Assembly: GCA_902825905.1 (NCBI GenBank)
Contig: CADECO010000004.1
Location: 1-52,787 of the forward strand
From: an uncultured beta proteobacterium
GTDB taxonomy: Bacteria; Pseudomonadota; Gammaproteobacteria; Burkholderiales; SG8-39
DNA length: 52,787 nt
Reading direction: 5' to 3'
The notes under the pieces were generated by a model. The model saw only the letters and a program-made list of their open reading frames with translations, was not told where the DNA came from and did not search any database. The first letter of the stretch is position 1; the number at the start of each line of letters is the position of its first letter. The position numbers and the translations under genes are program-made. Positions 1 through 17,233 of the stretch are shown here, piece by piece.

Positions 1-173
1 AGTCGCGCGGCTTCTTCGACAAGTCCTTCCGCTTGGGCGAGTCCGACCTGCCCACCCGCTTGCGCATCGAGGCCGAGGCCGCCGACGCCGAGCGACAGGC
101 CGCGCGCGCCCTCATCGAACTCGGCGCAGCGATCTCCGCGTGGCGGCAGGCCCTGGGCCTTCTGCCGCAGTGA
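1..173 (+). CDS. 3' end of an ORF entering from upstream (partial). The tail is compatible with an outer-membrane factor (TolC/CzcC-type) of the downstream RND cluster.
   Basis: Frame 3 is open from the window edge to TGA at 171-173 (...RLGESDLPTRLRIEAEAADAERQAARALIELGAAISAWRQALGLLPQ*). The Ala/Arg-rich helical tail ends in ALG.., as in OMF C-termini, and it sits directly upstream of the MFP/RND genes. It is absent from the ORF track because it has no start in the window. Confidence 0.35.
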   Translation, partial: SRGFFDKSFRLGESDLPTRLRIEAEAADAERQAARALIELGAAISAWRQALGLLPQ

Positions 174-244
174 GCCGACGGGACACGCCCTCAGCACACG
201 CACCCACGCACACGCTCAGCGAACCCATTCAGGAATCCGATCCC

Positions 245-805
245 ATGAAGTCCTCCCACTCCTTGGCCGCACTCAGCCTCGCGGCCATGCTGCTCGCTAC
301 CGTCCTGCCGGCCATCGCCGGCGAGGGCCATGACCACGGTGACGCGGCCTCCGCCGCCACCGGCACGGCGCTGCCGCGCTTCGCCGCGGTGTCCGAGACC
401 TTCGAGCTCGTCGGCGTGCTCGACGGCAAGCAGATCACGCTCTACCTCGACCGCTTTGCCGACAACGCCCCCGTACGCGGCGCGCAGATCGAGCTCGAGA
501 TCACTGGGGCCCAGTTCAAGGCCGAGGCCCACGGCGACGACGCCTATAAGGTGGTGCTCAAGGAAGCACCCAAGCCCGGCGTGCTGCCGATCACCGCGAC
601 CGTGACCGCTGGGGCGGAGGTCGATCTACTGGCCGGCGAACTCGACCTGCACGAGGCCGCCCATACCGACGAGTCCGCGCATAAACATTCGTGGAAGGAG
701 GTCGGCGGATGGGCCGCTGGCGGCCTGACAGTCCTTGCCGTCCTCGTGTTCGGCGGGAGACGCCTGATGGCCGCCCGCCAGATCCGCGCCGGAGGTGCAG
801 CATGA
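245..805 (+). CDS. Secreted, C-terminally membrane-anchored His-rich accessory protein of the RND cluster (function unknown)
   Basis: ORF 140..805 trimmed to ATG 245 (signal peptide MKSSHSLAALSLAAMLLATVLPAIA). Mature N-terminus is GEGHDHG. C-terminal hydrophobic helix GGWAAGGLTVLAVLVFGG. The stop overlaps the next start (ATGA at 802-805). Confidence 0.6.
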   Translation: MKSSHSLAALSLAAMLLATVLPAIAGEGHDHGDAASAATGTALPRFAAVSETFELVGVLDGKQITLYLDRFADNAPVRGAQIELEITGAQFKAEAHGDDAYKVVLKEAPKPGVLPITATVTAGAEVDLLAGELDLHEAAHTDESAHKHSWKEVGGWAAGGLTVLAVLVFGGRRLMAARQIRAGGAA

Positions 806-1920
806 AGCGCGCTTCGACGCATCGCCTGGCTTCGATCGGCGTGGTGCTGGCACTCGTCGGCCCACTGAACACGCAGGCCGGTGAAGGCCATAACCACGGC
901 GAGGCGCCCGCTGGGCCCAGCGCGAACGGCCCACAGCGCCAGCCTGGCGGCAGCGTCTTCCTACCCAAGCCGGCACAGCGCCAGCTGGTTGTGCGCACGA
1001 TGGTGGCTGCGGAGGCCGAGCTGCCGCGCTCGTTCGAATTAAACGGCAAGGTGCTGATGGACCCGAATGCGGGTGGCAAGGTGCAGCCGCTGAACGCCGG
1101 GCGCATCGAGCCCGGTCCGCGGGGCCTGCCGAATCCCGGGCAAGCGGTGCGCAAAGGCGAGGTGCTGGCCTATGTGGTGCCGTCAACCGCGCCCCTCGAG
1201 CGCTCGAACCAGTCGGCGCAACTGGCCGAGTTGCGCGCGGCCAAGTCGCTCGCCGAGAAGCGCGTGGCGCGGCTGAAGGAACTCTCGGATACCGTGCCTC
1301 GCAAGGACATCGAGGCGGCCGAAAGTGAGGCGGCCAGTTTGGCCGAGCGCATCGCGGCGGTCGGTGGAGGTCTCGCGACGCGCGAGGCCCTGGTCGCCCC
1401 AGTGTCGGGTGTGATCGCCTCAGCCCATGTGGTCGCCGGCCAGGTGGTAGACGCCCGCGAACTGCTGTTCGAGATCATCGACCCGGGCCGTTTGCGCATC
1501 GAGGCGCTGGCCTTCGAACCGGCGCTGGCAGCCGACGTCGGCAGTGCCTCGCTGGCGGTGGGTGACCAGCGTGTGCCGCTGGAGTATCTGGGCGCAGCGC
1601 GCAGCCTGAGAGAGCAGGCCCTGCCGCTGAGTTTCCGCGCCCAGGGAGCGGCCCTGAACAGCCTTGCCGTCGGACAGCCCGTGCGCGTCTTCGTGCAGAC
1701 GAAGCAGAAGGTCAAGGGCATCGCAGTCCCGGTCGCGTCGCTGATGAAGAATCCGGCCAACCAGACCGTCGTCTGGGTCAAGACCGCGCCCGAACGCTTC
1801 GAGCCCCGCACCATCATTGCCGAGGCACTCGATGGCGTAAGCGTCGCCGTCACATCGGGGCTGAAGGCTGGGGACCGCATCGCCACACAAGGTGCCACCC
1901 TGATCAATCAGGTGCGCTGA
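802..1920 (+). CDS. RND efflux periplasmic adaptor (membrane fusion protein, HlyD/CzcB-like)
   Basis: ORF 691..1920 trimmed to ATG 802 (signal MKRASTHRLASIGVVLALVGPLNTQA). Mature N-terminus is GEGHNHG. It has a coiled-coil hairpin segment (AQLAELRAAKSLAEKRVARLKEL...EAESEAASLAERIAA) and barrel segments (PVSGVIASAHVVAGQVV). There is a 1-nt gap to the pump gene. Confidence 0.85.
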   Translation: MKRASTHRLASIGVVLALVGPLNTQAGEGHNHGEAPAGPSANGPQRQPGGSVFLPKPAQRQLVVRTMVAAEAELPRSFELNGKVLMDPNAGGKVQPLNAGRIEPGPRGLPNPGQAVRKGEVLAYVVPSTAPLERSNQSAQLAELRAAKSLAEKRVARLKELSDTVPRKDIEAAESEAASLAERIAAVGGGLATREALVAPVSGVIASAHVVAGQVVDARELLFEIIDPGRLRIEALAFEPALAADVGSASLAVGDQRVPLEYLGAARSLREQALPLSFRAQGAALNSLAVGQPVRVFVQTKQKVKGIAVPVASLMKNPANQTVVWVKTAPERFEPRTIIAEALDGVSVAVTSGLKAGDRIATQGATLINQVR

Positions 1921-1921
1921 C

Positions 1922-4900
1922 ATGTTCAAGTGGCTACTCGACAACAGCCTGACGAACCGGCTGCTGGTGATCATCGCCAGCGTCGTTCTGATGGCCTATG
2001 GCGCGTTCACGCTGTCGCGCACGCCGGTGGACGTGTTTCCCGACCTCAACAAGCCGACCGTCACCATCATGACCGAGGCCGGCGGCATGGCCGCCGAGGA
2101 GGTGGAGCAGCTCATCACCTTCCCGCTGGAGACGACCATGAACGGTCTGCCCGGCGTGGAGAGCGTGCGCTCAACCTCGTCGGCCGGCCTGTCCTTCCTC
2201 TACGTCACCTTCGACTGGAGCACCGACATCTTCCGCGCCCGGCAACTGGTGTCGGAGCGGCTGTCCTCGATGGAAGAAGGCATCGCCGAAGGCGTGGTGC
2301 CGCGCATGGGCCCGATCAGCTCGATCATGGGCGAGATCATGCAGATCGCCATTCCGGTCGATCCGAGCAAGATCAGCCCGATGGCCGTGCGCGAGTACGC
2401 CGACTGGGTGCTGCGACCGCGCCTGATGTCGGTTCCGGGTGTGGCGCAGGTCATCCCGATCGGCGGCGAGGTGCGGCAGTTCCAGGTGCAGCCGAACACG
2501 GCGCGCATGGCGGAGCTGGGCATCACCCACGACCAGCTGGAGTCGGCGTTGAAGGGCTACTCGTCGAACACCTCGGGTGGCTTCCTAGAGCTGAGCGGGC
2601 GCGAGTACCTGATCCGGAACCTCGGCCGAACGTCCCGGCTCGATGATCTGAAGAACCTCGCGCTCGCGGCCAAGAGTGGCCAACCCATCCTGCTGCGCCA
2701 GATCGCCGAGGTGACTTTCGCCGCGGCACCCAAGCGCGGTGATGCCGGGTTCGATGGCAAGCCGGCGGTGATCCTTGGCATCCAGAAGCAGCCGACCGCC
2801 GACACCATCGCGCTGACGAAATCTATCGAAGACGCGCTGGTCGGGTTGAAGGCGTCGCTGCCGGCCGGCATGGAGGCGCCGCGCGTGACCTTTCGTCAGG
2901 CCAGCTTCATCGAGGCCTCGATCACCACGCTGCAGGGCAAGCTGATCGGCGCCTCGGTTTTCGTGGCGGTGATCCTGTTCTTCTTCCTCGGCACTGTGCG
3001 GCCAACCGTCATCGCGCTGACGGCCATTCCGGTGTCGATCCTCATCACCGCGCTGGTCTTCAAATACTTCGGGCTGTCGATCAACACGATGACGCTGGGC
3101 GGCCTGGCCATCGCCATCGGCGGTCTGGTCGATGACGCCGTGGTGGGCGTCGAGAACGTGTTGCGGCGGCTGAAGGCCGACCGGGCCAACCATCCGAACA
3201 GCCGGTTGAACCCCATCGAGATCGTCGCGCACGCGACGATGGAGGTGCGATCAGCCATCCTCTACGCGACGGTCATCATCGTGCTCGTCTTCATCCCGCT
3301 GTTCGCGCTGCCGGGGCTGGAGGGCAGGCTGTTCGTGCCGCTGGGCATCGCCTTCATCGTCTCGACGCTGGCCTCGCTGATCGTCTCGGTGACGGTGACG
3401 CCGGTGCTCAGCTTTTACCTGCTGCCGCGGATGAAGAACCTGGACCACGGTGACACCAAAGTCCTGGCCTGGCTGAAGGCGCGTTATCGCAGCAGCCTGC
3501 AGAACGTGCTGGATCGGCCGAAGGCCGCCATGGCGGCGGCCGGTGTGGCCGTGCTGGTGGCCGCAGTGGCGGTGCCCTTCTTCCCGACGACCTTCCTGCC
3601 GCCGTTCAACGAGGGCTCGCTGCTGATCGGCCTGCGGTTGAACCCGGGCGTCACGTTGACGGAGTCCTCGGCCTTGGCACGCCAAGCCGAGGTATTGGTC
3701 AAGCAGGTGCCCGAGGTCACGCACGTCGGCCGTCGCAGTGGCCGGGCCGAACTGGACGAACACGCCGAAGGTGTGCACGTCAGCGAACTCGATGTCGGCC
3801 TCAAGCCCACTGCCGAGCTGACACGCAGCATGGACGAGATCAAGGCCGACATCCGCAAGCGCTTGGTGAACCTGCCCGCCGCGCTGGAGATCGGCCAGCC
3901 GATCTCGCACCGCATTGACCACATGCTCTCGGGTGTGCGCTCGCAGATTGCGATCAAGATCTTCGGCGAGGACCTCGATGCACTGCGCGGCCAGGCGGAT
4001 GCGTTGCGCGCCAGACTGGCCAAGATACCCGGCATCGCCGACCTGCAAATCGAGAAGCAGGTGCTGGCGCCGCAGATCAAGGTGCGCATCGACTACGCCG
4101 CGGCGGCGCAGTACGGCGTGCCGGCGCCGCAGGTGCTGTCGGCGCTGCAGGCACTGGTCGAGGGCGAGAAGGTCACCCAGATCGTCGAGGGCAGCCGGCG
4201 CTTCGCACTGGTCGTGAAGCTGCCCGAGTCGGCGCGCTCGGTCGAAGGCCTGGGCCAGATCCTGATCGAGACGCCGAACGGCCGCATCCCGCTATCGAAG
4301 ATCGCCACCGTCGAGGACGGTGACGGCCCCAACCAAATCAGCCGGGACGACGGCAAGCGGCGCATCGTGCTGTCGGCCAATGCGTCCGGGCGCGCGCTGT
4401 CGGAGATCGTGGCCGACATCCGCAAGGTGGTTGCCGAAACCAAACTACCCGAGGGTTACTTCATCACCTTGGGCGGCCAGTTCCAGGCGCAGGAGGAAGC
4501 CTCACGCCGAGTCGGCCTGCTGTCGATCGTGTCGCTGACGCTGATGTTCGCGGTGCTCTACAGCCGCTACAAGTCGGCGGCGCTGTCGGCGCTGATCATG
4601 GTGAACATCCCACTGGCTCTCGTCGGCGCGGTGATCGGCCTATGGCTGTCGGGCCAGCCACTGTCGGTGGCGGCCCTGGTCGGCTTCATCACGCTGGCCG
4701 GCATCTCGGTGCGCAACGGCATTCTGAAGGTCAGCCACTACATCAACCTGATGCGCTTCGAAGGTGAGTCCTTCGACCAGAAGATGATCGTGCGCGGCTC
4801 GCTGGAGCGGCTGAGCCCAGTGCTGATGACCGCGCTGGTGACGGCCTTCGCTCTCGCGCCGCTGCTGTTCGAGGCCGAGCAGCCCGGCACCGAGGTACTT

Positions 4901-5041
4901 CACCCGGTGGCCGTAGTGATCTTCTCCGGCCTCATCAGCTCGACCCTGCTCGACACCTTCCTCACGCCCGCGATGTTCTGGCTCTTCGGTCGCAAGCCGG
5001 CCGAAGCGCTGATGGACGGCAAGGACGCCGAGGCGCTGTGA
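1922..5041 (+). CDS. Heavy-metal-efflux (HME) RND inner-membrane pump, CzcA/CusA superfamily; substrate not assignable
   Basis: 1039-aa ORF with a 12-TM RND layout and two large periplasmic loops. N-terminus is MFKWLLDNSLTNRLLVIIASVVL and the TM4 motif is AIAIGGLVDDAVVGVENV. A by-eye alignment to the CusA paralog at 20657-23848 shows Met missing at two of the three CusA Cu(I)-site positions. Confidence 0.93.
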   Translation: MFKWLLDNSLTNRLLVIIASVVLMAYGAFTLSRTPVDVFPDLNKPTVTIMTEAGGMAAEEVEQLITFPLETTMNGLPGVESVRSTSSAGLSFLYVTFDWSTDIFRARQLVSERLSSMEEGIAEGVVPRMGPISSIMGEIMQIAIPVDPSKISPMAVREYADWVLRPRLMSVPGVAQVIPIGGEVRQFQVQPNTARMAELGITHDQLESALKGYSSNTSGGFLELSGREYLIRNLGRTSRLDDLKNLALAAKSGQPILLRQIAEVTFAAAPKRGDAGFDGKPAVILGIQKQPTADTIALTKSIEDALVGLKASLPAGMEAPRVTFRQASFIEASITTLQGKLIGASVFVAVILFFFLGTVRPTVIALTAIPVSILITALVFKYFGLSINTMTLGGLAIAIGGLVDDAVVGVENVLRRLKADRANHPNSRLNPIEIVAHATMEVRSAILYATVIIVLVFIPLFALPGLEGRLFVPLGIAFIVSTLASLIVSVTVTPVLSFYLLPRMKNLDHGDTKVLAWLKARYRSSLQNVLDRPKAAMAAAGVAVLVAAVAVPFFPTTFLPPFNEGSLLIGLRLNPGVTLTESSALARQAEVLVKQVPEVTHVGRRSGRAELDEHAEGVHVSELDVGLKPTAELTRSMDEIKADIRKRLVNLPAALEIGQPISHRIDHMLSGVRSQIAIKIFGEDLDALRGQADALRARLAKIPGIADLQIEKQVLAPQIKVRIDYAAAAQYGVPAPQVLSALQALVEGEKVTQIVEGSRRFALVVKLPESARSVEGLGQILIETPNGRIPLSKIATVEDGDGPNQISRDDGKRRIVLSANASGRALSEIVADIRKVVAETKLPEGYFITLGGQFQAQEEASRRVGLLSIVSLTLMFAVLYSRYKSAALSALIMVNIPLALVGAVIGLWLSGQPLSVAALVGFITLAGISVRNGILKVSHYINLMRFEGESFDQKMIVRGSLERLSPVLMTALVTAFALAPLLFEAEQPGTEVLHPVAVVIFSGLISSTLLDTFLTPAMFWLFGRKPAEALMDGKDAEAL

Positions 5042-5081
5042 TCTTTCCTGCGTTTCCACCCACCAACCTGAAAGGATCTCC

Positions 5082-5453
5082 ATGAAGACGCAAGCCCTTC
5101 TCGCCTCCCTCACCCTCGCCCTGGCCGGCGCGGCCTTCGCCGCAGGCAAGCACGATCACAAGCCACTGCACGGCGGCGTGGTGGTCGAGGTCAAGGACAT
5201 CGACTACGAACTGGTCGCCAAGCCGACCGTCATCCAGCTTCACCTGCGCGACCACGGCAAGGCAGTCGACGTGTCCAAGGCCAGCGCGAAGGTCACGCTG
5301 TTGACCGGTACCGAAAAACAGGAGGTTGAGCTGAAGCCGGCTGGCGACAAGCTCGAAGCCACCGGCAGCTTCAAAGTCGGCCCTGGGACCAAGGCTGTCG
5401 CGGTCGTGACCGTGGCGGGCAAACCGGCCACCGCACGCTTCACCATCAAGTGA
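5082..5453 (+). CDS. Small secreted protein trailing the RND pump (unknown function)
   Basis: Signal peptide MKTQALLASLTLALAGAAFA; mature N-terminus AGKHDHKPLHGG. The beta-rich body resembles the middle of the 245-805 product (YELVAKPTVIQLHLRDHGKAV vs FELVGVLDGKQITLYLDRFAD). Confidence 0.6.
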   Translation: MKTQALLASLTLALAGAAFAAGKHDHKPLHGGVVVEVKDIDYELVAKPTVIQLHLRDHGKAVDVSKASAKVTLLTGTEKQEVELKPAGDKLEATGSFKVGPGTKAVAVVTVAGKPATARFTIK

Positions 5454-5844
5454 CACACAGCCGCTGCATGAACAGCGCGAACATTGAACGCGCGGACCTG
5501 TGCCAACCCCGTCGAGCACCGGGTTGGCCTGGCTGTCGGCCGCCTGGCTCGACCTTCACCGCACTGTTCATCGGCGAGTAGCCCGGCGCTCTGACCGACT
5601 GTTCCAGGCCGTCAGCGTGAGGAAGTGGCCGCGCCTCGAATCTGACCTTCGATGAGCAGGCCGTGGCAGCGAAAGTCAGCTGTCATCGAAGCTCGGGAAC
5701 GCACAGAGACGGCCATGAGCCGCCGGACAGTGCGCGGCGCCCAAAGCGGTCGCTTCGACAAACTGGCTGGTTGCCGATACCATCGCTGCCACATGTAGAT
5801 TGCATCTTCAGGTCTAGTGCTATTCGCGCAGCCGGGATCCACAA

Positions 5845-6882
5845 GTGGCCAGTTCTGATCAGCTAAAAGCGCTAATAAAGTCGCACATTGCCCGCGATGA
5901 AGGGCAGTTCCTGTCCGTCGCCATGCAGGTCGCTGCGCACGAGGCGAAACTCGGCCATGGCAAGCTGGCGGAGGAGTTGCGCGAAATGATCGACGCGGCC
6001 AAGACGCGTCTGAGCCAAGACAATTCAGGCAAGCTAGTTGCGATTGCCGGTTCCGCCAAGCCACGCAGCGAACTCGCCGGCTTATTGACGGTTTCACATC
6101 CGCCGAACCGCCTCAGCGATCTCATCCTGGACAACGTCTCGGCGGGCCAACTGCGCCGGGTCGTTAGAGAGCAGCGCCAACTTGCCAGAATCAAGGAACA
6201 TGGGCTCGCGGCGCGCCGCAAGCTCCTCCTCGTAGGGCCACCAGGAACTGGAAAGACAATATCGGCCGCTGCACTGGCCGGCGAACTGGGCCTGCCGTTG
6301 TTTCTGGTCCGGCTCGATTCCCTGATCACAAAGTTCATGGGCGAGACCGCGGCCAAGCTTCGGCAAGTATTCGATGCAGTGGCCGACATGCGCGGGGTCT
6401 ACTTCTTCGACGAGTTTGATGCCATCGGGTCTCAGCGTGGCCTGGGCAACGACGTGGGTGAGATCCGACGTGTGCTGAACAGCTTTCTGCAGATGATCGA
6501 GCAGGACCACTCGAACAGCCTCATCATCGCCGCAACCAATCACCCTGAAGTGCTCGACTACGCCTTGTTCCGACGGTTCGATGACGTGGTGGAGTACCGG
6601 CTACCCACGCTCGAACAAGCCTGCGATCTAATTCGTTCTCGGCTTGGTTCATTCGCTCCCCGTCAGTTCAAAAAAGGCAAGTGGGTCGAGCAGGCCGAAG
6701 GCCTGAGCCATGCCGAGATCAGTCGCGCGGTTGACGCGGCCGTCAAGGATACGATCTTGCATGACCAGACGATAGTGCAACCAGCCGAACTGGGGCGAGC
6801 GTTAGAGGAGCGCCGACTCATCACTGCAAGGCTGGCGCAGAACAAGCACTCGTCCAGCCATGCCGGAACAGCCACAAGATAG
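5845..6882 (+). CDS. Single-domain AAA+ ATPase (IetA-like partner of the downstream S8 protease)
   Basis: Walker A GPPGTGKT (6235-6258), Walker B VYFFDEFD (6397-6420), and a sensor region IIAATNHPEVLD. GTG start. Its 3' end overlaps the next ORF by 23 nt. Confidence 0.85.
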   Translation: MASSDQLKALIKSHIARDEGQFLSVAMQVAAHEAKLGHGKLAEELREMIDAAKTRLSQDNSGKLVAIAGSAKPRSELAGLLTVSHPPNRLSDLILDNVSAGQLRRVVREQRQLARIKEHGLAARRKLLLVGPPGTGKTISAAALAGELGLPLFLVRLDSLITKFMGETAAKLRQVFDAVADMRGVYFFDEFDAIGSQRGLGNDVGEIRRVLNSFLQMIEQDHSNSLIIAATNHPEVLDYALFRRFDDVVEYRLPTLEQACDLIRSRLGSFAPRQFKKGKWVEQAEGLSHAEISRAVDAAVKDTILHDQTIVQPAELGRALEERRLITARLAQNKHSSSHAGTATR

Positions 6883-9403
6883 GCGCCCGCACCTTGTTCT
6901 GACGAACACGTCAGCGGCGCGGTCCTTCACCGCCCCGTCGCGTGGTGGCGGCACTAACGCCGATGTGCCTGCTCGAGATCGTGCGCAGCACGGGGCGGCG
7001 TTGAAGGCACAGATCGACGCCCTCAAGCCCGTGGCCGAGCAGGCGGTGACCACGCAGCGAGAACAGGGGCTCCAAAGCGGTCTTGGGCTCCAAGTCCAGT
7101 TCGTCAGCGTGCCTGATGTAGAGCTGGCGTTCGAGAGTCTCGGCAGCGAAGTGGGCAGGGATCCGAAGAGGAAGATCGAGGTCCTGAGCGTATGGGACGA
7201 GGCTGGCACGACATACGCCAACGTCTTTGTTCCTGACGGGAAGCTAGACCACTTTGAGCGGTACGTTGCTGATTACGTCACCGAGCGCAAGAAGGCCAAC
7301 GGCCACGCTCTCGATCACCGAGAACTACTCGACGCCATCTCGTCGATCCGGAAAGCAGAGCTTCGCGCTCTTTGGACTGATGACGCAGCGCTGTTCCCAC
7401 AAGACTCTAACGAGTCGTTCTGGTGGGAGGTCTGGCTTCCCGTTCGCGGGAGCCGCGATGTCGTAGTCGCCGACTTCCGCAAGCTCGCCGCGCTTTCAGG
7501 CTGCGAGGTCAGCGAGCGCAAGATCAACTTTCCAGAACGGACGGTCCTCGTCATGTACGGCTCCCAAGAGCAACTTGGTGCCTCGGTCATGACGCTGAAC
7601 TGCGTGGCCGAGCTGCGCCGCGCAAAGGAGACCGCCGACTTCTTCGACGGCATGACGCCGCTAGAGCAGCAGGGGTGGGTTGACGACGCTCTTGCGCGAA
7701 TGCGCGTTGCGCCCGCACACGACTCGACACCACGTGTGTGCCTGCTGGACTCGGGTGTCAATCGCGCGCACCCGATGCTCAAGCCTCTCATCGCCGACAC
7801 CGACCTCCACACCGTGAATCCGGCATGGGGCGTTGACGACACGGCCAATCACGGAACGGGCATCGCCGGCCTGGTCGCGCTGGGGGACTTCACGGACGCG
7901 CTCGAGTCCGCAGATCCGTTGGTCGTCCAGCATCGGATCGAATCCGTAAAGCTTACCCCTGAGCAAGGCGCCAACGCTGGTGATTCGCGACAGCACGGCT
8001 ACCTGTTCGGCGAGGCGGTATCAAGGCCAGAGATCGCCGCACCCGAGCGCCCACGCGTCTTCACGTCGGCCGTGACGTCCAGTGATGATCGCGATCGTGG
8101 CCGCCCCTCGGCGTGGTCCGCTACGGTGGATCGCCTGGCATCGGACTACGACGGCAACGGCCAGTTTCCTCGCCTGTTTGTCTTGTGTGCCGGAAACACG
8201 GAGGATCCGCAATCTTGGGGCACATACCCTGCAAGCTTGGACACGAGCGGTATTCGTGACCCGGGCCAAGCTTGGAATGCTCTAACGGTCGGCGCGTACA
8301 CGGACAAGGTGCACATCACCGAGATGGACGCCCAAGAATACGCGCCGGTCGCATCGAAAGGCGGCCTTAGCCCCTACACGCGCACGTCGCTCACTTGGGA
8401 CAAGGCGTGGCCGTTCAAGCCCGACGTGGTGTTCGAGGGAGGGAACGCGGGCAAGGACGCTCTCGGCGCGATAGGAATCACCAGCCTCCACTTGCTCACC
8501 TCCAACAACCAACCGCTCCAGCGACTTCTGACGACGAGCAACGCCACGAGTGCAGCATCAGCGCTGGGCGCTCGGATGGCCGCGCAACTGATGACAGCCT
8601 ATCCCGCGCTGCGGCCAGAGACGATCCGCGCCCTGATCGCACACTCCGCGGACTGGACCGAGGCCATGCGAGCGGCTTACCTGCCAGCGCCAGGGCAGCC
8701 GACCAAGACCGACTACGTCAACCTAATCCGCCGCTGCGGCTGGGGCGTTCCCAGTCTCGAACGTGCTCTTTGGAGCGCAGGCAATTCACTGACCCTCGTG
8801 GTCGAGGACCAGTTGCACCCCTACAAGAAAGAGAAGGGGAAAGCGGTCGCTACACGCGACATGAACCTCCACTCGTTACCCTGGCCCAAGGAGCAACTGC
8901 TGGAACTGCCTCCCGACACCCAGGTGGAGATGCGCGTCACGCTGTCGTACTTCATCGAACCGAACCCTTCAGCACGTGGCACCTCGTCCAAGTTCCATTA
9001 CCCATCACACCGCCTGCGCTTCGACGTTCAGCGGCCGCTCGACGAGACGACCGAGGCCTTCGTCGCTCGACTCAACGCCGCAGCACTGCGCGAGGATGAA
9101 GGTGACCCCATCAATCCGAAGGACCCTGAGTGGATCCTGGGATGCACGAAGCGACACCGTGGTTCGCTGCATCAGGACATCTGGCGTGGAACCGCTGCCG
9201 CGCTTGCTAACCGCGGGTTCATGGCTGTGTACCCTGCCAGTGGTTGGTGGCGTACTCGTCCAGCCTTAGAGCGATATGACCTGGCTGCACGCTACAGCCT
9301 TATCGTTTCAATCCGGACGCCGGAAACGGATGTGGACATCTATGCCCCAGTCACCAACCTGGTGGCGGCGCAGGCCGGGGTCACTGTACTCGTGAATACC
9401 TGA
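6860..9403 (+). CDS. S8 (subtilisin-family) serine peptidase, cytoplasmic, with large N- and C-terminal extensions (IetS-like)
   Basis: Candidate catalytic triad: D in CLLDSGV (7748-7750), H in NHGTGIAG (7850-7852), S in NATSAASALGARMAA (8549-8551). No signal peptide (MPEQPQDRRPHLVL...). 847 aa. Confidence 0.85.
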   Translation: MPEQPQDRRPHLVLTNTSAARSFTAPSRGGGTNADVPARDRAQHGAALKAQIDALKPVAEQAVTTQREQGLQSGLGLQVQFVSVPDVELAFESLGSEVGRDPKRKIEVLSVWDEAGTTYANVFVPDGKLDHFERYVADYVTERKKANGHALDHRELLDAISSIRKAELRALWTDDAALFPQDSNESFWWEVWLPVRGSRDVVVADFRKLAALSGCEVSERKINFPERTVLVMYGSQEQLGASVMTLNCVAELRRAKETADFFDGMTPLEQQGWVDDALARMRVAPAHDSTPRVCLLDSGVNRAHPMLKPLIADTDLHTVNPAWGVDDTANHGTGIAGLVALGDFTDALESADPLVVQHRIESVKLTPEQGANAGDSRQHGYLFGEAVSRPEIAAPERPRVFTSAVTSSDDRDRGRPSAWSATVDRLASDYDGNGQFPRLFVLCAGNTEDPQSWGTYPASLDTSGIRDPGQAWNALTVGAYTDKVHITEMDAQEYAPVASKGGLSPYTRTSLTWDKAWPFKPDVVFEGGNAGKDALGAIGITSLHLLTSNNQPLQRLLTTSNATSAASALGARMAAQLMTAYPALRPETIRALIAHSADWTEAMRAAYLPAPGQPTKTDYVNLIRRCGWGVPSLERALWSAGNSLTLVVEDQLHPYKKEKGKAVATRDMNLHSLPWPKEQLLELPPDTQVEMRVTLSYFIEPNPSARGTSSKFHYPSHRLRFDVQRPLDETTEAFVARLNAAALREDEGDPINPKDPEWILGCTKRHRGSLHQDIWRGTAAALANRGFMAVYPASGWWRTRPALERYDLAARYSLIVSIRTPETDVDIYAPVTNLVAAQAGVTVLVNT

Positions 9404-10010
9404 GATCAAGGTGCGAGGGGCAGTACTACGCCGCGAACGCTTTGCGCGTTTGCGCGCCGAGTGTCTGGTTTCGTCCTGACTCAAATGGCTGCTTCGGGTC
9501 GCGTACAGCCGATCACCGCAGGCGCAAGGAGTCGTTCGCGAATCGCCACCCGGCCGGCCACGGTCGAGTGACCGGTGATGAAGGCGGAGCGGTCGATCGA
9601 GGCTGTGGTCTTCGAGCGACGGGTGATCGCGGCAGCCGCCGTTGAGGCCGCGGACGGCGATTGACCGTGTTCAGTCTGAAACGGTTGTCTGGCAGTGCGA
9701 CAGGGGCGGTTCTTGACCGGTGAGGCTAGTTGACGAAGTCGCATGTCGACCACGGAACAAGTGCAGCGAACCATTCCGAGGCGGCCCTTCGCTTCCCGCC
9801 TGATCGCCGCGATGCCGTTCCGGTGTGGCGCGACTGGCGAGATCGACAACAGCCATACGCCGCACGGATTTCTTTCGAGCTGCCCGTCGGGGGGGGATGG
9901 CGACCGGTTCAAGATGCTACGCGTCGGCATCCGCTTTCTGTTGGCGGAGTCTGCCGAGATCGTCTGATAGCGTCTTGCCAACCACGACCGCGCTCTGCAG
10001 TACGCTCGAG

Positions 10011-10038
10011 AAAACTACGCTCGCTAGGAAGAGCGTAG
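10011..10038 (-). terminator. Likely intrinsic terminator of the coupling-protein operon
   Basis: The minus strand reads CTACGCTC-ttcctagc-GAGCGTAG followed by TTTTCT. This is an 8-bp perfect stem with an 8-nt loop, about 50 nt after the stop at 10090. Confidence 0.5.
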
Positions 10039-10089
10039 CCCTCAAGACGCCGAGGCTTGCGCGAAACACGACAGCGCAGAAAGTGCGGA

Positions 10090-11514
10090 TCAAGTCGGGC
10101 CTCGCGCTTCTTGTTCGAACGAAGAAAAGTGCGTCTCGAATTTGTCGGCGAGATCGAGTCCAGCTCGCCTGCGCGCCTCGTAGCGAACAATCTCGAAGCG
10201 TTGGTCTCGCACCGGCTCAACCCGCGGAAACTTGACCTTGTATCCGGCATGCGCGCCTTTGATCAACACAAACGCTTCGCCGATATCGAGCCCTGAAAAC
10301 TCATCGGGCCGCACGCGATAGTCGTACTGCTCTCGGGTCGTGACTGATTCAGAGTTGGATTGCCCCGTGTTGTGGAACAGTTCCAGGTTCAGATTGACGT
10401 TGCCTGAAGACCGACTCTGTCCGCGCGATTCCATGCGGAACTGCCGCAGAACCTCGCCCGTGACGCGCGCTGCCCACTCGCAGGTATTCACGTCCCCCAG
10501 TTGCAGAAAAGTCTGGATCTCGGTGTTGCCGATAACTTGGTCGGCCAAATCGTCGCTGACGTTCTTCAGGTTCGCATATGTTTGGAACATCGGGATCAGC
10601 GCTACCCGCGCCCCGCGCGCCATCTCGAACAGTTGCGCGACGAGCTTGTTCGCGTAGGCGCCGAACTCGTCCATCCACACTTGATGCGGCACCAGCGGTA
10701 GCTTCCAGCTCGGCCGCCGATACAGCTGCGCGAGCGTACTGCGCAGATCGCTCAGGAACAGCTTGGCGAAAGCAATCGCCGCCTCGCTCTTGTCGAGCGA
10801 AGGGATCATGAAATAGACGATCTGGTAGTTATCGATCGCCTGCAGCAGATCGACCTCGGGGTTGTAGCTGTTGAGTACCTTGCCCATCTCGCCGACCGAA
10901 TAGATGAACAGCCGCGACACCACCCCGCCCACCTGCTGGCGTAACGCCTGGGTGTTGATGCGCATGCGCTTGTGCACCGGGTCGTACACCCGATACGACT
11001 CGAGCCAGATCTCGAAGCTCTGCCGCGCTTCGTTGGGTGGCAAGCGCCGCAGGAACCAGTCCATCGCTTCGGGGTTAGTGAGCAGGATGAACAGGTCCTT
11101 GGCGTTGTAGGCCAGGCCGGTGGACTTGATCGCCGTGAGCACCGCGGTGAGCCCGAGATTGGACTGCGATCGAAAGTGCTCGGCGGTCGGGTTGTTGCCG
11201 ACATCGACCGTATCGGTGAAGCGCGACGCAACGGCGACGGCGTCACCTCGCAACAGGGGGCTATAAGTGTGGCTCTCGCTGGCGTTGTCGATGTTGACCA
11301 CTCGAAAGTCCGCCTGCCGGCCATAGGTGTGGCACAGCGACACCAGCTTGTCGCGAAACTCGAAGTCATTCTTCGAATCGAGAATGAACGCGCCGCCCCC
11401 ACGCTTGAGCTGCTGGGCGAGCCGATGCAGGAGGTAGTTCGATTTGCCCGATCCTGAGCGTCCGGTGACCGACTCGTGGCGCAGCGCGCCTTCGTCGGTC
11501 AAGTACAGGTTCAC
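10090..11514 (-). CDS. Type IV coupling protein-like ATPase (VirD4/TraD/TraG family) lacking its membrane anchor
   Basis: GTG start. Walker A GRSGSGKS (11440-11463), Walker B-like VWMDEFG, then ARGARVALIPMFQTYANL as in T4CP C-terminal modules. No N-terminal TM segment. Confidence 0.75.
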   Translation of the reverse strand: MNLYLTDEGALRHESVTGRSGSGKSNYLLHRLAQQLKRGGGAFILDSKNDFEFRDKLVSLCHTYGRQADFRVVNIDNASESHTYSPLLRGDAVAVASRFTDTVDVGNNPTAEHFRSQSNLGLTAVLTAIKSTGLAYNAKDLFILLTNPEAMDWFLRRLPPNEARQSFEIWLESYRVYDPVHKRMRINTQALRQQVGGVVSRLFIYSVGEMGKVLNSYNPEVDLLQAIDNYQIVYFMIPSLDKSEAAIAFAKLFLSDLRSTLAQLYRRPSWKLPLVPHQVWMDEFGAYANKLVAQLFEMARGARVALIPMFQTYANLKNVSDDLADQVIGNTEIQTFLQLGDVNTCEWAARVTGEVLRQFRMESRGQSRSSGNVNLNLELFHNTGQSNSESVTTREQYDYRVRPDEFSGLDIGEAFVLIKGAHAGYKVKFPRVEPVRDQRFEIVRYEARRRAGLDLADKFETHFSSFEQEARGPT

Positions 11515-11795
11515 TAGCGCCGTTCCTTAATCGTTCCGAGCAGGTGCCAGTGGGCGGGTTCGCGTTTGAGCGACGGTGTCGCGATCGCGCAGGTTCGGTA
11601 CTCGCGGATCGGGCGAAGAGACTCGCTGGCCCAGAGGAAAAAAGCGTGGATGCGATCGACCGGGAACGAGGCGAGGATGCCGCTTGCGAGGAAGAAGAGG
11701 GCGCTCAGCCCGGGGACATCGAGGGCGGGATGCAAGGTGGCGAGTGTCCCGGCATACAGAACGATAAAGAACGCGACGCTGCGGAGGGTCGCCAT
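11514..11795 (-). CDS. Small two-TM membrane protein, putative detached membrane anchor of the coupling protein
   Basis: ORF 11514..11846 (GTG) or ATG 11795 (MATLRSVAFFIVLYAGTLATL...LSALFFLASGILASF gives two hydrophobic helices). Its TAG stop overlaps the GTG start of the ATPase by 1 nt (TAGTG). The start choice is uncertain. Confidence 0.5.
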   Translation of the reverse strand: MATLRSVAFFIVLYAGTLATLHPALDVPGLSALFFLASGILASFPVDRIHAFFLWASESLRPIREYRTCAIATPSLKREPAHWHLLGTIKERR

Positions 11796-12347
11796 GGCTG
11801 AGCTGTTTGGAACCTTTTCATTTGTTCCGGCCGAGCGAAACGCCACCGGGTCATTTCACCGCGCACGCGGAGCGCGCGATTCCCGCGATGCGTGAAATGC
11901 TGATTCGCGCTCAAGCGCACGGGATCGATTCCGAACGCAACGCGACAGATCGGAACACGGCGCTACACGACGGGACAAAACGCGACACATTGCTACAGGA
12001 CGATCGGCGACCGCGAGGTGGAAGGTTCATTCCAGATCGATCGGTCGCAGCGGTTGAACCGTGCCGATTCGCTTCACTGCCGAGGAACAAATGGAAGACA
12101 TCCCTCCCCGCGGCACTTCGTGCGAACTGACCGGCAGTTCTATTCGCATCTCGATCGACATCTTGCTGAGCGCGATCGGCGGATCGCTCGGTTTCGACTC
12201 GCGGGCCATCCGCTGTACGTTCGCTTCGCCCGTCGACCGGCAAACTGTCTCAATCTGTCCTTCACGTACTTCCAGGTTGGGCGCTCGACCCTGCGACATC
12301 CCACGTCGCAACTTCTTCGTCACCACGGCGTTGCGCCCACGCGCGAA

Positions 12348-13181
12348 ATGCTGCGCGACATTCGGTCGATCTGGAACGTCGATTCTGCAATCGAGAGGAT
12401 GTTGAGCATTGCCGCTCAGGCCGTGCGCGATTCGAGCGACGTATGTCATGCCCTGCTCGGACCGAAAGCTTTGCCCTATCGGGTGGAGGTGATCGACATT
12501 GCAAGGTCGCCGATCCTGCTCGAACGCGGGGAGAGCGTGTACTCGCCGCTGCCCTACGCATCCCGGGCGCTCGCCTTATCGGCGGTGAACGGCACGCTGC
12601 TCGCACTGGCCAACGCCGTGAAGACCTACGTCGACACGCACGTCACGGCCGCGATCCGACAGCAAGCCGGCTACAACGTGCGCGCGAGCCTGATGATCTA
12701 CATCGAGCCCTCGCAAGGTGTCATGCCGGACAACGCCCACTGGCGTGCCTGGGTGCGTGATCTGCGTGCCAAGCGCTGGATCGCCCGCACGCGCGTGTTC
12801 GGCCGCAACAGTGAGCGGCCGGTCCAGATCCCGACTCCGCTCACGCTCCAGACCATTCGACTCCTTCACCTCGAAAACCACGCGCCGTTCTTTCTTGCCG
12901 CCTCGCGTGAGCTCGAACGGCTGCGCGGGATTCGCGCGCAAGCACGGCCGCTTTTCGAGCTGGTTCGTCGATTTTGGGCCGTGCCGAGTTCCGGTAATAC
13001 GGGGCCCTCTGGCGCCGATCGTACGCACGGTGGCGTTGGTCATCCGCAAGGCATTGATTCCACGGCGGCACCGGCTAGGACCCGACCAAGACGCTTGTCC
13101 GAATCGAGTTACTGCAATACGGCGCCACAAAGAGCGAGACGACAAAGACACACGAAGACGCACGAACGGGTTGGGACGTAA
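12348..13181 (+). CDS. Hypothetical protein preceding parM (start uncertain)
   Basis: It is the longest frame in the region (ORF 12018..13181). Coding-like GC3-rich codons run from about ATG 12348 (MLRDIRSIWNVDSAIERML...); the upstream part is Arg-rich and does not look coding. No motif recognised. Confidence 0.45.
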   Translation: MLRDIRSIWNVDSAIERMLSIAAQAVRDSSDVCHALLGPKALPYRVEVIDIARSPILLERGESVYSPLPYASRALALSAVNGTLLALANAVKTYVDTHVTAAIRQQAGYNVRASLMIYIEPSQGVMPDNAHWRAWVRDLRAKRWIARTRVFGRNSERPVQIPTPLTLQTIRLLHLENHAPFFLAASRELERLRGIRAQARPLFELVRRFWAVPSSGNTGPSGADRTHGGVGHPQGIDSTAAPARTRPRRLSESSYCNTAPQRARRQRHTKTHERVGT

Positions 13182-13193
13182 AGGGCACCGAAG

Positions 13194-14237
13194 ATGGAAT
13201 CAAACACAGTCGAAACGCGCGTCATGGACTTCGCCGGGATCAACGTAGGCCACGGCCACGTCAAGGTCCAAACCGATCGCACGTACGTCCAGTACGCATC
13301 GCTGGTGCAACGGGCGAACGATCGGCTTGCGATGGGCGCGTTGCGGGGAAGCGCACAGCGTGTCGTCGTGGAGGGGAGCGCCTACGACGTCGGCGACGAT
13401 GTGGCGCTCTCAGGCGATCTCAGCCTGGGTCGAACCGTCTTTGGCCACTGGGGCGACTCCGACATCTATCGCGTGCTCCGCCAGTCGGTGGTGGAGCGCT
13501 TGGCCGGCGAATCGCTCGGGCCCTGGGTCGTGATGCTCGGCATCCCGGTCGCTCAGTTCAAGGATCTCGCGTACCGGCGAGCGTTGGTGGCCGGGTGGCG
13601 CGGGACCCATGACACCACGCGCGGCGAGCTTCGCATCTTGCACGCAGGCGCGACACCGGAGCCGCTCGGGTCGTTCTGGGAGTACGCCAGCCGCGGGCCC
13701 GCGCAACGCCAACAGCTCGCCTCCGGGGACGTGGTGATCGTCGATTTCGGCTACTTCACCACCGACATCAACGCGGTGCGGCGCATGGTGCTCAACACGC
13801 ACATCGCCGATTCGATCGACAAGGGGATGCGCGAGGTCTATCGCGCGCTGGGTGACCTGCTTCTGTCGCGGCACGGCGTCAACTGCTCCGATGTCGAGGT
13901 CGAGATGGCACTCTTGGGCCAGTGGCCGATTCTGGTTTCCGGCCAACCCATCGAACCGGCCGGACTCGTGGACGAGGTGCTCGTGCAGGTCGGTGCCGAT
14001 CTCCTCCACTGGATGCGCGCCATCATGGGTCGCGCCTCCGGCGTGGTCCTCACCACCGGTGGTGGCGCGCACCTGATGACCCCGCTCGTGCGCAATGCGT
14101 TTCCGCGCGTGGAGGTGATCATGGTGCCCGATCCGCAGGCGGCTAATGCGCGGGGCTATCACCGTATGGCCACCAGCATTCCGAAGGCACTTACCACTGA
14201 GGCGAACCATCGTGACGAGCCAAGAGCGTTCCGGTGA
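13194..14237 (+). CDS. parM: ParM/StbA-family actin-like segregation ATPase
   Basis: Actin-fold motifs: FAGINVGHGHVKV (phosphate 1), VVIVDFGYFTTD (phosphate 2), VLTTGGGAHL (adenosine), DPQAANARGY at the C-terminus. An alternative start is ATG 13224. Confidence 0.75.
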   Translation: MESNTVETRVMDFAGINVGHGHVKVQTDRTYVQYASLVQRANDRLAMGALRGSAQRVVVEGSAYDVGDDVALSGDLSLGRTVFGHWGDSDIYRVLRQSVVERLAGESLGPWVVMLGIPVAQFKDLAYRRALVAGWRGTHDTTRGELRILHAGATPEPLGSFWEYASRGPAQRQQLASGDVVIVDFGYFTTDINAVRRMVLNTHIADSIDKGMREVYRALGDLLLSRHGVNCSDVEVEMALLGQWPILVSGQPIEPAGLVDEVLVQVGADLLHWMRAIMGRASGVVLTTGGGAHLMTPLVRNAFPRVEVIMVPDPQAANARGYHRMATSIPKALTTEANHRDEPRAFR

Positions 14238-14775
14238 TAACCCTCGTCGACCACGCCGATTGTCGGTGCGGCTCGATGCGCGCGCCGATGCCCCACTCAT
14301 GATCGAGCTCGAGCGCACCTTGAAAGGCAGACGGGGCGCGCGATTGCTCGAGCTCATGCACCTGGGTTCGGATAGTGAACGTCGGGCCATCGCCAGCCCT
14401 GTAAGCCCTCTATTCGGGACTCTCGAGGACAGAGCACGCCCCAATTGCAGTCACATGCAAGTCGCGATGACGTTCGGTGCCGCGTCCTCGGAGTTACTAC
14501 TCGATCTGATGTCCGCCCCGAAGCGCACCACACGAATGCGTGCGCTCGCGCTGAAGGGATTGCAGCTCGGCACCGCCCGTTCGGAAAATGTTGCGACGGT
14601 GCGCTGCGCGCGAGTACCCGAGGAGCGCGGGCCCGACCTGTTCGACGAGCAGTCACTCCCTACGATCGCCTCCGGCCCTCCCAACTCGATCGGCGCGACC
14701 ACGATCGCCCGAGCCGACGCGGCTGAACTCGCCCAGGAAGCGATGGTTGCCGAATTCTTGAAGGAAAGCTGGTGA
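14212..14775 (+). CDS. Tandem ribbon-helix-helix-like DNA-binding protein (ParR-like adaptor or TraY-like accessory)
   Basis: ORF 14146..14775 with a plausible GTG at 14212 that overlaps the parM end. There are two RHH-like units (RLSVRLDARADAPLMIELERT..RGARLLELMHLG and QVAMTFGAASSELLLDLMS..RMRALALKGLQLG). It sits immediately after parM, and its stop overlaps the next start (GTGA). Confidence 0.45.
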   Translation: MTSQERSGDNPRRPRRLSVRLDARADAPLMIELERTLKGRRGARLLELMHLGSDSERRAIASPVSPLFGTLEDRARPNCSHMQVAMTFGAASSELLLDLMSAPKRTTRMRALALKGLQLGTARSENVATVRCARVPEERGPDLFDEQSLPTIASGPPNSIGATTIARADAAELAQEAMVAEFLKESW

Positions 14776-15596
14776 GCGCAGCTCGCTACTGCTTCGCCGC
14801 TTGCGCCATCATTTGGGCAGCGCTTGCCTTCGGCGCGACGACCATCAGCATCGATCGGATCATGCTCGCGATCCGCGCAGTGGAATCCGGCGGTCACCCG
14901 TACGCGATTCGCGACAACACCGCCAATCGGTCGTACTTCCTGGGGTCCCGCGACGAAGCTATCGCCAAAGTGCGCGAGCTGGTCGCCCGCAACCACAACA
15001 TCGACATGGGGCCGATGCAGATCAACTCGATCCATCTGCGCCGTCCCGGCATCTCGATCGACACCATCTTCGACGCGGGCATCCAATCATCACTCGCGCG
15101 CACGATCTTCGATGAGTTTCATACCCAGTCGAAGGCGATCCACGGCGATTCCGACTTGGCGTTGTGGCGTGCGGTGGGTGCCTACAACATGGGCGTGGCC
15201 GGCCTACGTTTCGACAACACCGCCTACATCAGCAAGGTCATGGCGCAGGTGGGCATCGCACGCGTAGCGCCTGGAGCGGAAGTCAGCCACGGATCAGGTG
15301 CGTTGCAAGGAGTTGTCAATCTTGCCGAGCAGCTGACGCGATTCGCGACGCCGTTCCAGTGGCGGATCGGCGAGCGGATCGAGCTTGGCGAAAGCATCGA
15401 GAGGCTTTCTGCCGACGCGGAACTCTGGGAGGGCACCGACATCGCTGGCGGATTGCTGCTGCTGATCATTGCGATCGCGGTGCTCTTCCTGATCGCGAAG
15501 CTGGGATTGATCTATGCGACCGCGAAGGTGATCACGAAGCTCACTGCGAGCCAGGCGATCGCGCAGATGACCAGACGCCGGCAAACACCAACTTAG
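14772..15596 (+). CDS. Lytic transglycosylase (SLT domain, VirB1/IagB-like) with a C-terminal TM helix
   Basis: Catalytic Glu context AIRAVESGG, GPMQINSIHL and GAYNMG motifs. N-terminal signal and a C-terminal helix LLLLIIAIAVLFLIAKLGLIYA. SD AAGGAAAG lies before GTG 14772. Confidence 0.8.
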   Translation: MSAARYCFAACAIIWAALAFGATTISIDRIMLAIRAVESGGHPYAIRDNTANRSYFLGSRDEAIAKVRELVARNHNIDMGPMQINSIHLRRPGISIDTIFDAGIQSSLARTIFDEFHTQSKAIHGDSDLALWRAVGAYNMGVAGLRFDNTAYISKVMAQVGIARVAPGAEVSHGSGALQGVVNLAEQLTRFATPFQWRIGERIELGESIERLSADAELWEGTDIAGGLLLLIIAIAVLFLIAKLGLIYATAKVITKLTASQAIAQMTRRRQTPT

Positions 15597-15967
15597 CAAG
15601 GGCATCGGCGCCGAGGAACATTCCTGGTGAGTGTTGACTGAAGGTACGCATCACGTTTTGTAGCCCATTGACGGCGCCGCTGGGCTGGCGCGACCTGTAC
15701 ACCTTGAATTGCCGACTTGGCTGGCGCGTTCGCTGGATCAAGTCCAACGCGACCATCGTAGTTCGATTGCGATGGTCTGCGAACGAATCGCTATCGAATT
15801 GGCGTGAGGCCCTCCCGTTCTTCGATGAACTATGCCCTCGCGTCGCCCCTCGGAGCCAGTGTTGCCCAATCGCTGCGCACGGCCATCGATCAATTCCGCA
15901 TGAGCAACGAACGGTAGGGCCTTCAGCCCACCGTCGTGCTCCAAACGATATCCAAAGGAGTCATCCC

Positions 15968-16564: not shown

Positions 16565-16603
16565 GCTCCTCGTTCTTCACTTCCAGCACCTCCGAGAAAT
16601 CTC

Positions 16604-17107: not shown

Positions 17108-17123
17108 ACTACTGCTTCAGAGC

Positions 17124-17160
17124 CCTCGCGCCGCGGTTGCGCGAGGAGTCTTCGGTTTTC
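17124..17160 (+). terminator. Possible intrinsic terminator ending the backbone block
   Basis: CCTCGCGC-cgcggtt-GCGCGAGG (8-bp GC-rich stem), followed 8 nt later by TTTTCTT. The non-canonical spacing lowers confidence. Confidence 0.4.
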
Positions 17161-17233
17161 TTGTAACCGGCGTGTTCGCGTGTAGAGGTACGGGGGCGCG
17201 CGCGTCGGAACGTCGGTTCGCGTCAGTTCCATT

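Follow-up and report, generated by a model that had tools for sequence, protein, structure and literature searches.

The 52,787-nucleotide stretch of DNA analysed here (contig CADECO010000004.1 of assembly GCA_902825905.1, from an uncultured, probable betaproteobacterium), hereafter the window, encodes at 5845-9403 an AAA+ ATPase followed by an S8 protease. The two genes are adjacent and co-directional, and they form an intact copy of IetAS, an already-described system and not a new kind of system. An initial annotation of this DNA had proposed the two co-directional open reading frames (ORFs), their 23-nucleotide overlap, the Walker A and B motifs and the catalytic triad; a script check recovered all of them at the positions below.

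5625..5844, + strand: non-coding leader 5′ of ietA, with public contigs starting at 5625 or 5617; holds a promoter-like match
5755-5783, + strand: sigma-70-like match TCGACA-17-TACCAT, the sole such match in the region
5845..6882, + strand: ietA (ORF1), GTG start, 345 amino acids (aa), classical-clade AAA+ ATPase, predicted antitoxin/regulator
6235..6258, + strand: Walker A GPPGTGKT (K137)
6331..6345, + strand: pore-loop-1 KFMGE (aromatic-hydrophobic-Gly), placed by alignment to KFYGET of an AFG2 homologue (8rhn)
6397..6420, + strand: Walker B VYFFDEFD (D189, E190)
6568..6582, + strand: second region of homology with arginine fingers, FRRFD (R243, R244)
6860..6882, + strand: 23-nucleotide overlap of the ietA 3′ end and the ietS 5′ end, likely translational coupling site
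6860..9403, + strand: ietS (ORF2), ATG start, 847 aa, cytoplasmic S8 subtilase, predicted toxin/effector
6860..7729, + strand: IetS N-terminal region, residues 1-290, with the precomputed Pfam annotation PF27160 Y4kK_N
7730..8746, + strand: subtilase catalytic core, residues 291-629, defined by Pfam Peptidase_S8, the conserved triad and motif alignment
7748-7750, + strand: triad Asp, D297 (GAC codon)
7850-7852, + strand: triad His, H331 (CAC codon)
8195-8197, + strand: oxyanion Asn, N446
8549-8551, + strand: triad Ser, S564 (AGT codon)
8777..9400, + strand: IetS C-terminal beta-rich domain, residues ~640-847, no Pfam family found
9161-9184, + strand: conserved G-S-x-H-x-D-x-W motif of the IetS C-terminal domain

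Both proteins match the profiles of the family to which the initial annotation had assigned them. The PADLOC profile for IetA (PDLC02196) matches the ATPase at 1.4e-74, aligning residues 3-325 with profile positions 3-323 of 374, and the profile for IetS (PDLC02198) matches the protease at 3.4e-31 over residues 122-839. The Ti-plasmid reference pair was drawn from pTiEML4 (214,233 bp, with the size and protein accessions of pTiC58) in place of the original pTiC58 record, and is taken to be the founding IetAS. Against it, IetA is 54% identical over 325 aa (E = 1e-116) and IetS is 40% identical end to end, residues 1-847 aligning with 1-836. This end-to-end identity makes the pair a full-length homologue of the founding IetAS, beyond a mere ATPase next to a subtilase.

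The pair belongs to one particular branch of this family. Its scores for the NCBIfam models IteA_antiphage (NF042959; 211.3 bits against a cutoff of 510) and IteS_antiphage (NF042956; 86.8 bits against 900) do not reach the cutoffs. Alignment to the IteS model covers nothing beyond the S8 core (residues 278-653), indicating that the N- and C-terminal regions differ from those of the Escherichia coli IteS subtype. A scan of 5,426 E. coli genomes found the pair's own subtype in nine, generically annotated, and found no pair annotated as IteA/IteS. No SNF2-family helicase gene adjoins the pair, which is bordered upstream by CzcA and a 123-aa ORF and downstream by an opposite-strand gene resembling type IV coupling proteins (T4CP-like); it is therefore not the helicase-containing variant ietHAS.

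The GTG start of ietA is independently supported by nucleotide homology to over 25 related loci, which starts at 5845/5846, and by the alignment of IetA residue 1 with residue 1 of Ti-plasmid IetA. The ietS ATG is not preceded by a purine-rich Shine–Dalgarno sequence. Overlaps of 20-23 nucleotides between the two genes recur in the closest clade, other clades having ~4-nucleotide overlaps or short gaps, and in the window ietA and ietS are probably translationally coupled through their 23-nucleotide overlap. The spacer upstream of ietA (5454-5844), initially described as 390 bp and ORF-free, has essentially that length (391 bp); the second half of the description fails, as its listed ORFs comprise one of 67 aa on the + strand and others in antisense orientation. 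The spacer shows no conservation in relatives, which have no nucleotide homology to the leader at 5625..5844. The sigma-70-like site in this leader is weak evidence for a promoter, since one match was found where 0.7 would be expected by chance. The features of the pair itself are not due to chance, given homology E-values that reach 0 and an identical protease on nine independent contigs from different samples.

ORF1 matches Pfam AAA over residues 127-251 (1.4e-29). The closest solved relatives of IetA are the AFG2 homologue, Cdc48/p97 and FtsH, with the best PDB matches (the AFG2 homologue and Cdc48/p97) at 1e-43 to 1e-40, and its secondary NCBIfam matches are to FtsH and proteasome-activating nucleotidases. 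All the features of a classical-clade AAA+ unfoldase are present: Walker A and B, pore-loop-1, the sensor-1 asparagine and the arginine-finger region. Conservation was measured over 39 syntenic IetA homologues, in which K137 (39/39), D189, E190, R243 and R244 are 100% conserved, sensor-1 N232 is 97% conserved and the pore loop keeps the pattern K-[F/Y]-M-G-E-T. A relaxed Pfam scan of the IetA N-domain gave nothing. By these conserved ATPase motifs and its pore loop, IetA is fully equipped as an ATP-driven machine for engaging protein substrates, and it may act as a hexameric unfoldase.

In ORF2, Pfam Peptidase_S8 matches residues 291-629 (2.1e-49) and leaves 290 N-terminal and ~218 C-terminal residues outside the core, in line with the flanks of about 290 and 200 aa initially reported. 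Conservation and profile analyses of IetS used 136 diverse homologues, 34-78% identical to the query. The resulting profile aligns the LDTGV, GHGT, AGN and TSAA motifs with those of solved subtilases (for example sphericase and subtilisin); a single-sequence PDB search with IetS gave no match at 1e-3, and the profile search alone aligned the catalytic motifs. D297, G299, H331 and S564 are invariant across the 136 sequences and N446 is at least 90% conserved, which places the proposed triad at catalytic positions. The IetS N-terminus is hydrophilic, with a mean hydropathy of -0.95 over residues 1-30 and nine-residue windows of at most 1.08 in the first 40 residues. The protease thus shows no sign of a signal peptide, as had been claimed, judged by the hydropathy of the first 40 residues with no dedicated predictor run.

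Nothing had been recognised in either flank of the protease core. This holds for the C-terminal flank, which matches no Pfam family; the N-terminal flank carries the Y4kK_N annotation. Relaxed Pfam scans of both regions returned nothing, and no I9 match appeared even at E up to 5. An AlphaFold2 model of full-length IetS, built from the 136-sequence alignment, has a predicted local distance difference test score (pLDDT) of 89.8 and a predicted template modelling score of 0.80; the N-terminal region modelled alone has a pLDDT of 82.9. In the models, the N-terminal region starts with a tail and a long helix (41-68), which are followed by two beta-alpha-beta-beta-alpha-beta units, one at 76-165 and the other at 187-254. 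The second unit immediately precedes the catalytic core, and its modelled topology is compatible with an I9-type propeptide. The same region contains a WWEVW motif that includes the invariant E190 as well as W192, whose conservation is at least 90%.

Foldseek comparison of the predicted protease structure, a check the initial annotation had recommended, gave different results for the part and the whole. The isolated N-terminal region had no PDB match at or below 1e-3, its best being a generic tandem ACT/ferredoxin-like fold at 4e-3. Most top matches of full-length IetS were subtilases with a propeptide, a C-terminal beta-domain or both, among them ProN-Tk-SP (4e-17), EpiP, furin, Kex2 and PCSK9. 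There being no significant N-terminal match and no I9 match, the zymogen-like reading of IetS draws on topology and these full-length fold matches. A search of a viral structure library returned generic subtilases only. PDB entry 8jmw, an 803-aa S8 peptidase of 18 chains considered as a possible solved IetS, is Vpr in its fibril form and is related to IetS through the subtilase core alone.

Residues 11-20 of IetS (6890-6919), which include the near-invariant H11, have a pLDDT of ~95 in the full-length model and below 50 in the isolated region. The extreme N-terminus is modelled with confidence only in the context of the whole protein, and thus appears to pack against either the protease body or the C-terminal domain. 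Within the C-terminal domain, the 136 homologues all share S696, Y714, G768 and W796, and at least 90% conservation is seen at S769, H771, D773 and W775.

The two genes travel together. A genome scan with one genome per species returned 41 loci, distributed among Burkholderiales, Gallionella, Thauera, Desulfotomaculum, Binatia, Latescibacterota and others. At every locus with upstream DNA (38/38 genome and 3/3 plasmid loci), ietS is immediately preceded by a same-strand ietA homologue, which bears out in 41 of 41 cases the synteny expected elsewhere; ietA is missing only from three contigs that break off within the protease gene. The nucleotide homology that relatives share with the window does not extend beyond 5845-9403. 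The G+C content at third codon positions is 0.70-0.73 in the pair, compared with 0.90 in czcA and 0.82 in the ParM-like gene. IetAS is a two-gene cassette that moves between genomic contexts. The idea that it belongs to a conserved conjugative backbone was rejected: the T4CP-like, ParM-like, SLT, RadC and Czc genes accompany it in 0 of 41 related loci, and homology stops at the two coding sequences.

Protease homologues are abundant on plasmids. A tblastn search of a plasmid collection found them in 489 records, 341 of them conjugative plasmids, including Agrobacterium Ti plasmids; 213 records are from Klebsiella. IetAS cluster representatives at E ≤ 0.001 number 3,774. As for near-identical DNA, the plasmid collection holds only a 77% match over 385 bp. 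Truncated or insertion sequence (IS)-disrupted copies occur elsewhere, for example at H14, L043 and L052.

Individual plasmid copies differ in their surroundings. The Klebsiella pair is common on conjugative plasmids, where its annotation goes no further than ‘S8 family peptidase / ATP-binding protein’. On plasmid I of Klebsiella pneumoniae Kp52.145 (L011) the protease is 58% identical, and the pair is IS-flanked and sits beside umuDC and a StbDE toxin–antitoxin pair. On the megaplasmid of Cupriavidus sp. USMAA2-4 (L010:8682-8999), the gene for a 105-aa helix-turn-helix regulator runs into the start of ietA (8992) and the pair is 67-68% identical; this locus may represent a three-gene regulated variant. 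No equivalent regulator ORF lies upstream of ietA in the window.

Chromosomal relatives occupy a different setting. In relatives 74-79% identical to the pair (L053-L059, L014, L017 and L052; for example L059:8971-19366), ietAS lies 11-12 bp upstream of a complete hsdM-hsdS-hsdR operon, and these type I restriction-modification-linked relatives are located in chromosomal islands. The pair of Variovorax sp. OV700 is additionally preceded by an Mrr nuclease gene. In such relatives, ietAS and the type I restriction-modification genes may form a co-transcribed composite defence operon. Among the 94 ORFs nearest the pair at 25 genome loci, the commonest encode DNA methylases, DEAD and UvrD helicases, HsdM, KAP NTPases and NERD+UvrD proteins.

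Anti-phage activity of IetAS was reportedly added to its known functions by Gao et al. 2020, which the initial annotation had taken for the first report of the system. In the passages of PMC5006074 and PMC13069673 that recount its history, IetAS was described in 2009 as a toxin–antitoxin and stability module of pTiC58, with IetS as the toxin and IetA as the antitoxin (Yamamoto et al. 2009, J Bacteriol 191:4656). A related pair occurs on the integrative element SGI1, where S025 (SgiT) is toxic in E. coli and is neutralised by S026 (SgiA); deletion of SgiAT raises SGI1 loss, with stabilisation seen when an IncA/C plasmid is present, and every SgiT homologue adjoins an SgiA homologue, according to the authors (PMC5006074). 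The IetAS of Bacillus cereus m1293 acts by abortive infection and is triggered by the SPbeta protein YosG (bioRxiv 10.1101/2022.08.27.505566). In a study of April 2026, a mutated ietA could not be constructed, protease activity was required for defence and the variant ietHAS was described; the same study states that the substrate and anti-phage mechanism of IetAS are still unknown (PMC13069673). The initial statement that trigger, substrate and mechanism had not been worked out therefore survives for substrate and mechanism and has been partly overtaken for the trigger. Our literature search, alternative spellings included, found no structural, substrate or mechanistic study of IetAS.

Set beside pTiC58 IetA/IetS, the pair shares the order of ATPase then protease, the common orientation, the catalytic motifs, the N- and C-terminal extensions and carriage on a mobile element. 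It differs in the gene junction, a 3-nucleotide gap in the Ti plasmid against a 23-nucleotide overlap in the window. It also differs in setting, with a Rhizobiaceae host and catabolic neighbours in one case and a probable betaproteobacterium with metal-efflux and megaplasmid-type neighbours in the other. SgiA/SgiT of SGI1 is likened to the pair by description, as an AAA-ATPase antitoxin and a subtilase toxin that promote retention of an integrative element, and its strict adjacency matches the synteny at all 41 loci; unlike SgiAT, with its specific conflict with IncA/C helper plasmids, the present copy has no known partner of that sort. The anti-phage pairs reportedly described by Gao et al. 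2020 (E. coli, B. cereus m1293), together with ietHAS, belong to the same PADLOC family. Features of these anti-phage homologues are a requirement for protease activity, an antitoxin-like ATPase and, in Bacillus, abortive infection through YosG. The present pair departs from them in scoring below the IteA/IteS cutoffs and in lacking an SNF2 helicase.

The nearest structural parallels to IetS are pro-subtilases. ProN-Tk-SP (3afg), EpiP (3qfh), furin/Kex2 and PCSK9 are among its best full-length fold matches (4e-17 to 1e-11) and, like the modelled IetS, place a ferredoxin-like module ahead of the catalytic domain and follow that domain with a beta-rich one. Whereas they are secreted or act in the secretory pathway and have a self-cleaved propeptide, IetS is cytoplasmic, has a 290-residue N-terminal region with two such modules and no significant propeptide match, and is partnered with an AAA+ ATPase.

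Taken together, the pair is very probably an intact, self-contained IetAS cassette that functions as a protein–protein toxin–antitoxin and abortive-infection module. Family membership, intact catalytic machinery, strict pairing and cassette-like mobility are observed directly for this copy; that the protease is toxic, that the ATPase is its antitoxin and that such pairs abort infection and stabilise their elements is carried over from experiments on homologues and would apply here by analogy. IetA would be made first from the shared transcript, with or before IetS, through coupling at the 23-nucleotide overlap. The putative IetA hexamer may bind IetS via the family-specific N-terminal region of the protease, and either grip its tail or repeatedly remodel it into an autoinhibited, zymogen-like state, with continued ATP hydrolysis needed to restrain it. 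Removal or blocking of IetA would free the protease, either through loss of the element followed by decay of a presumably less stable IetA, or through a phage protein of the YosG type. Unrestrained IetS would then cleave one or more host proteins and stop growth. Cells that lose the metal-resistance island would thereby be killed, stabilising the island, and infected cells would commit suicide, providing defence against phages.

Several points weigh against this interpretation. The pair falls far below the IteA and IteS cutoffs and so represents a subtype distinct from, at the least, the phage-tested E. coli system. Function is transferred to this copy, and to its clade of 60-88% identity, from homologues at most 54% identical. 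The proposed contact between IetA and IetS is one that we infer, and the N-terminal region that would mediate it has no significant fold match (best 4e-3) and no I9-propeptide match. SgiAT produced no post-segregational killing from its own promoter (PMC5006074), so a stabilising effect may depend on conditions. Scans of the window for other defence systems gave weak generic matches only, none of them near the pair.

The more open question is which outcome the module serves in this island. A purely addictive or stabilising role for the metal-resistance element, through post-segregational killing or competitor exclusion and with no anti-phage function, is possible, if somewhat doubtful. It accords with the founding members, defined by plasmid stability, incompatibility and SGI1 retention, and with 341 of 489 homologue-bearing plasmids being conjugative. 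The T4CP-like, ParM-like, SLT and RadC neighbours inside a metal-resistance island and the lack of another defence gene nearby fit it too, as do the contig breaks, which indicate a junction at 5625 with the pair lying on its backbone side. Against such an exclusive role, the closest relatives on chromosomes adjoin type I restriction-modification operons and Mrr, away from mobile-element genes, neighbours over 25 loci are mostly of defence type, and other IetAS homologues protect against phages. The placement of close relatives 11-12 bp upstream of type I restriction-modification operons supports a defence role; a stabilising role fits equally well, because the pair here stands alone on a metal-resistance mobile element. 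The initial description of defence cargo thus captures one of two equally tenable roles, with no other defence gene nearby in the window. Local context favours stabilisation and the context of relatives favours defence, and from sequence we rank neither above the other; the roles are not exclusive, since the same biochemistry would deliver both.

Other explanations concern the relationship between the two proteins. IetA could be an unfoldase that feeds IetS, as in ClpX/ClpP or the AAA module of FtsH, making it the activator or specificity factor of a two-component ATP-dependent protease, with the toxicity of IetS alone reflecting lost specificity. The position of IetA in the classical AAA unfoldase clade with its pore loop kept, its secondary matches to FtsH and proteasome-activating nucleotidases, the strict coupling of the two genes and the apparent need for both ATPase and protease activities in homologues would suit such an arrangement. 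We nevertheless consider it improbable: subtilases are not generally known to form gated, self-compartmentalised chambers, the AlphaFold2 model is a multidomain monomer like pro-subtilases, and in homologue genetics IetA neutralises IetS and is not required for its toxicity. That the pair has lost its activity or is degenerating, and is a mere passenger of the island, is scarcely credible. The only weak point in its favour is the lack of a strong promoter or Shine–Dalgarno signal; neither ORF is shortened in comparison with the Ti-plasmid proteins, every catalytic residue is preserved, an identical protease occurs on nine contigs from different samples, and the truncated or IS-disrupted copies found elsewhere look different from this one.

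Within the preferred toxin–antitoxin interpretation, a more specific and rather unlikely version can be formulated, in which the pair works as a ‘guarded unfoldase’ switch. The IetA hexamer would be an ATP-fuelled clamp that continuously grips or threads the N-terminal tail of IetS and engages its tandem ferredoxin-like modules. Residues 11-20 would dock on the protease body, so that a zymogen-like cytoplasmic subtilase is held shut at the cost of ATP, and the C-terminal G-S-x-H-x-D-x-W site would provide a second functional surface. Such a switch would sense a block of the AAA+ pore or reduced ATP, as might be brought about by a phage protein, by a collapse of the cell's energy supply or by the dilution of IetA once the element is lost. 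If correct, it would amount to a new regulatory logic for toxin–antitoxin systems, with the antitoxin as an energy-consuming clamp.

IetAS is widespread. The present copy adds no new principle, and the questions of its substrate and of how its AAA+ antitoxin acts are no more tractable here than in the many other copies. For the family as a whole, the analysis gives the Ti-plasmid-related subtype a defined three-part protease, modelled with two ferredoxin-like N-terminal modules, a docking extreme N-terminus and a conserved C-terminal motif, together with an ATPase that has a genuine unfoldase pore loop. Restriction-modification islands and conjugative elements are alternative settings among which this one cassette moves. 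Where a metal- or drug-resistance element carries a pair labelled ‘S8 family peptidase / ATP-binding protein’, the annotation is best read as a likely addiction and abortive-infection module that aids the persistence of that element.

The window as a whole is a heavy-metal resistance island containing czc genes, a cus-like RND system, a P-type ATPase, a multicopper oxidase and CusRS. The setting of the pair between metal-efflux and mobile-element genes is as initially described: CzcB, CzcA and the 123-aa ORF lie upstream, and a patch of mobile-element genes at 10-17 kb (T4CP-like, ParM-like actin, SLT transglycosylase and RadC) lies downstream. The 123-aa ORF (5082-5453, + strand), which immediately follows czcA, starts with a signal-peptide-like sequence (MKTQALLASLTLALAGAAFA) and matches no Pfam family; public records annotate it as a gene. 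One further feature of the downstream patch was delimited:

10090-11514, − strand: type IV coupling-protein-like gene, 474 aa, with a TraG-D_C / TrwB DNA-binding region

Relatives of this T4CP-like protein occur on 1,325 plasmids, mostly conjugative, including those of Klebsiella, Salmonella, E. coli and Pseudomonas; its best match is 38% identical, on a Comamonadaceae plasmid. The gene points to a megaplasmid-like backbone. The independent metagenome contigs L003, L004 and L005 begin exactly at 5625 and L006 at 5617, ~220 bp upstream of ietA. These starts suggest that 5617-5625 is an assembly-graph branch and a module junction, joining the czc cargo to the ietAS/backbone side. No repeat of the sequence at 5617-5625 was found elsewhere within the window.

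Two patatin-like phospholipase genes, at 17992-19488 (+) and 27265-28158 (−), have weak PADLOC phospholipase-effector matches (~1e-7), with no partner genes of a known defence system nearby. Rfam and tRNA scans of the window returned nothing. The metal-resistance region contains two sets of diverged direct repeats: copies of ~245 nucleotides at 37810-38055 and 38736-38982 (73-81% identity) form a set that overlaps a methyltransferase gene, and copies of 158 nucleotides lie at 40514-40671 and 41045-41202 (77% identity). Over shared stretches, positions 1-19403 of the window are 99.5%, 99.8% and 99.98% identical to the public contigs L001, L002 and L003, respectively, indicating that several near-identical copies of the element circulate in different samples.

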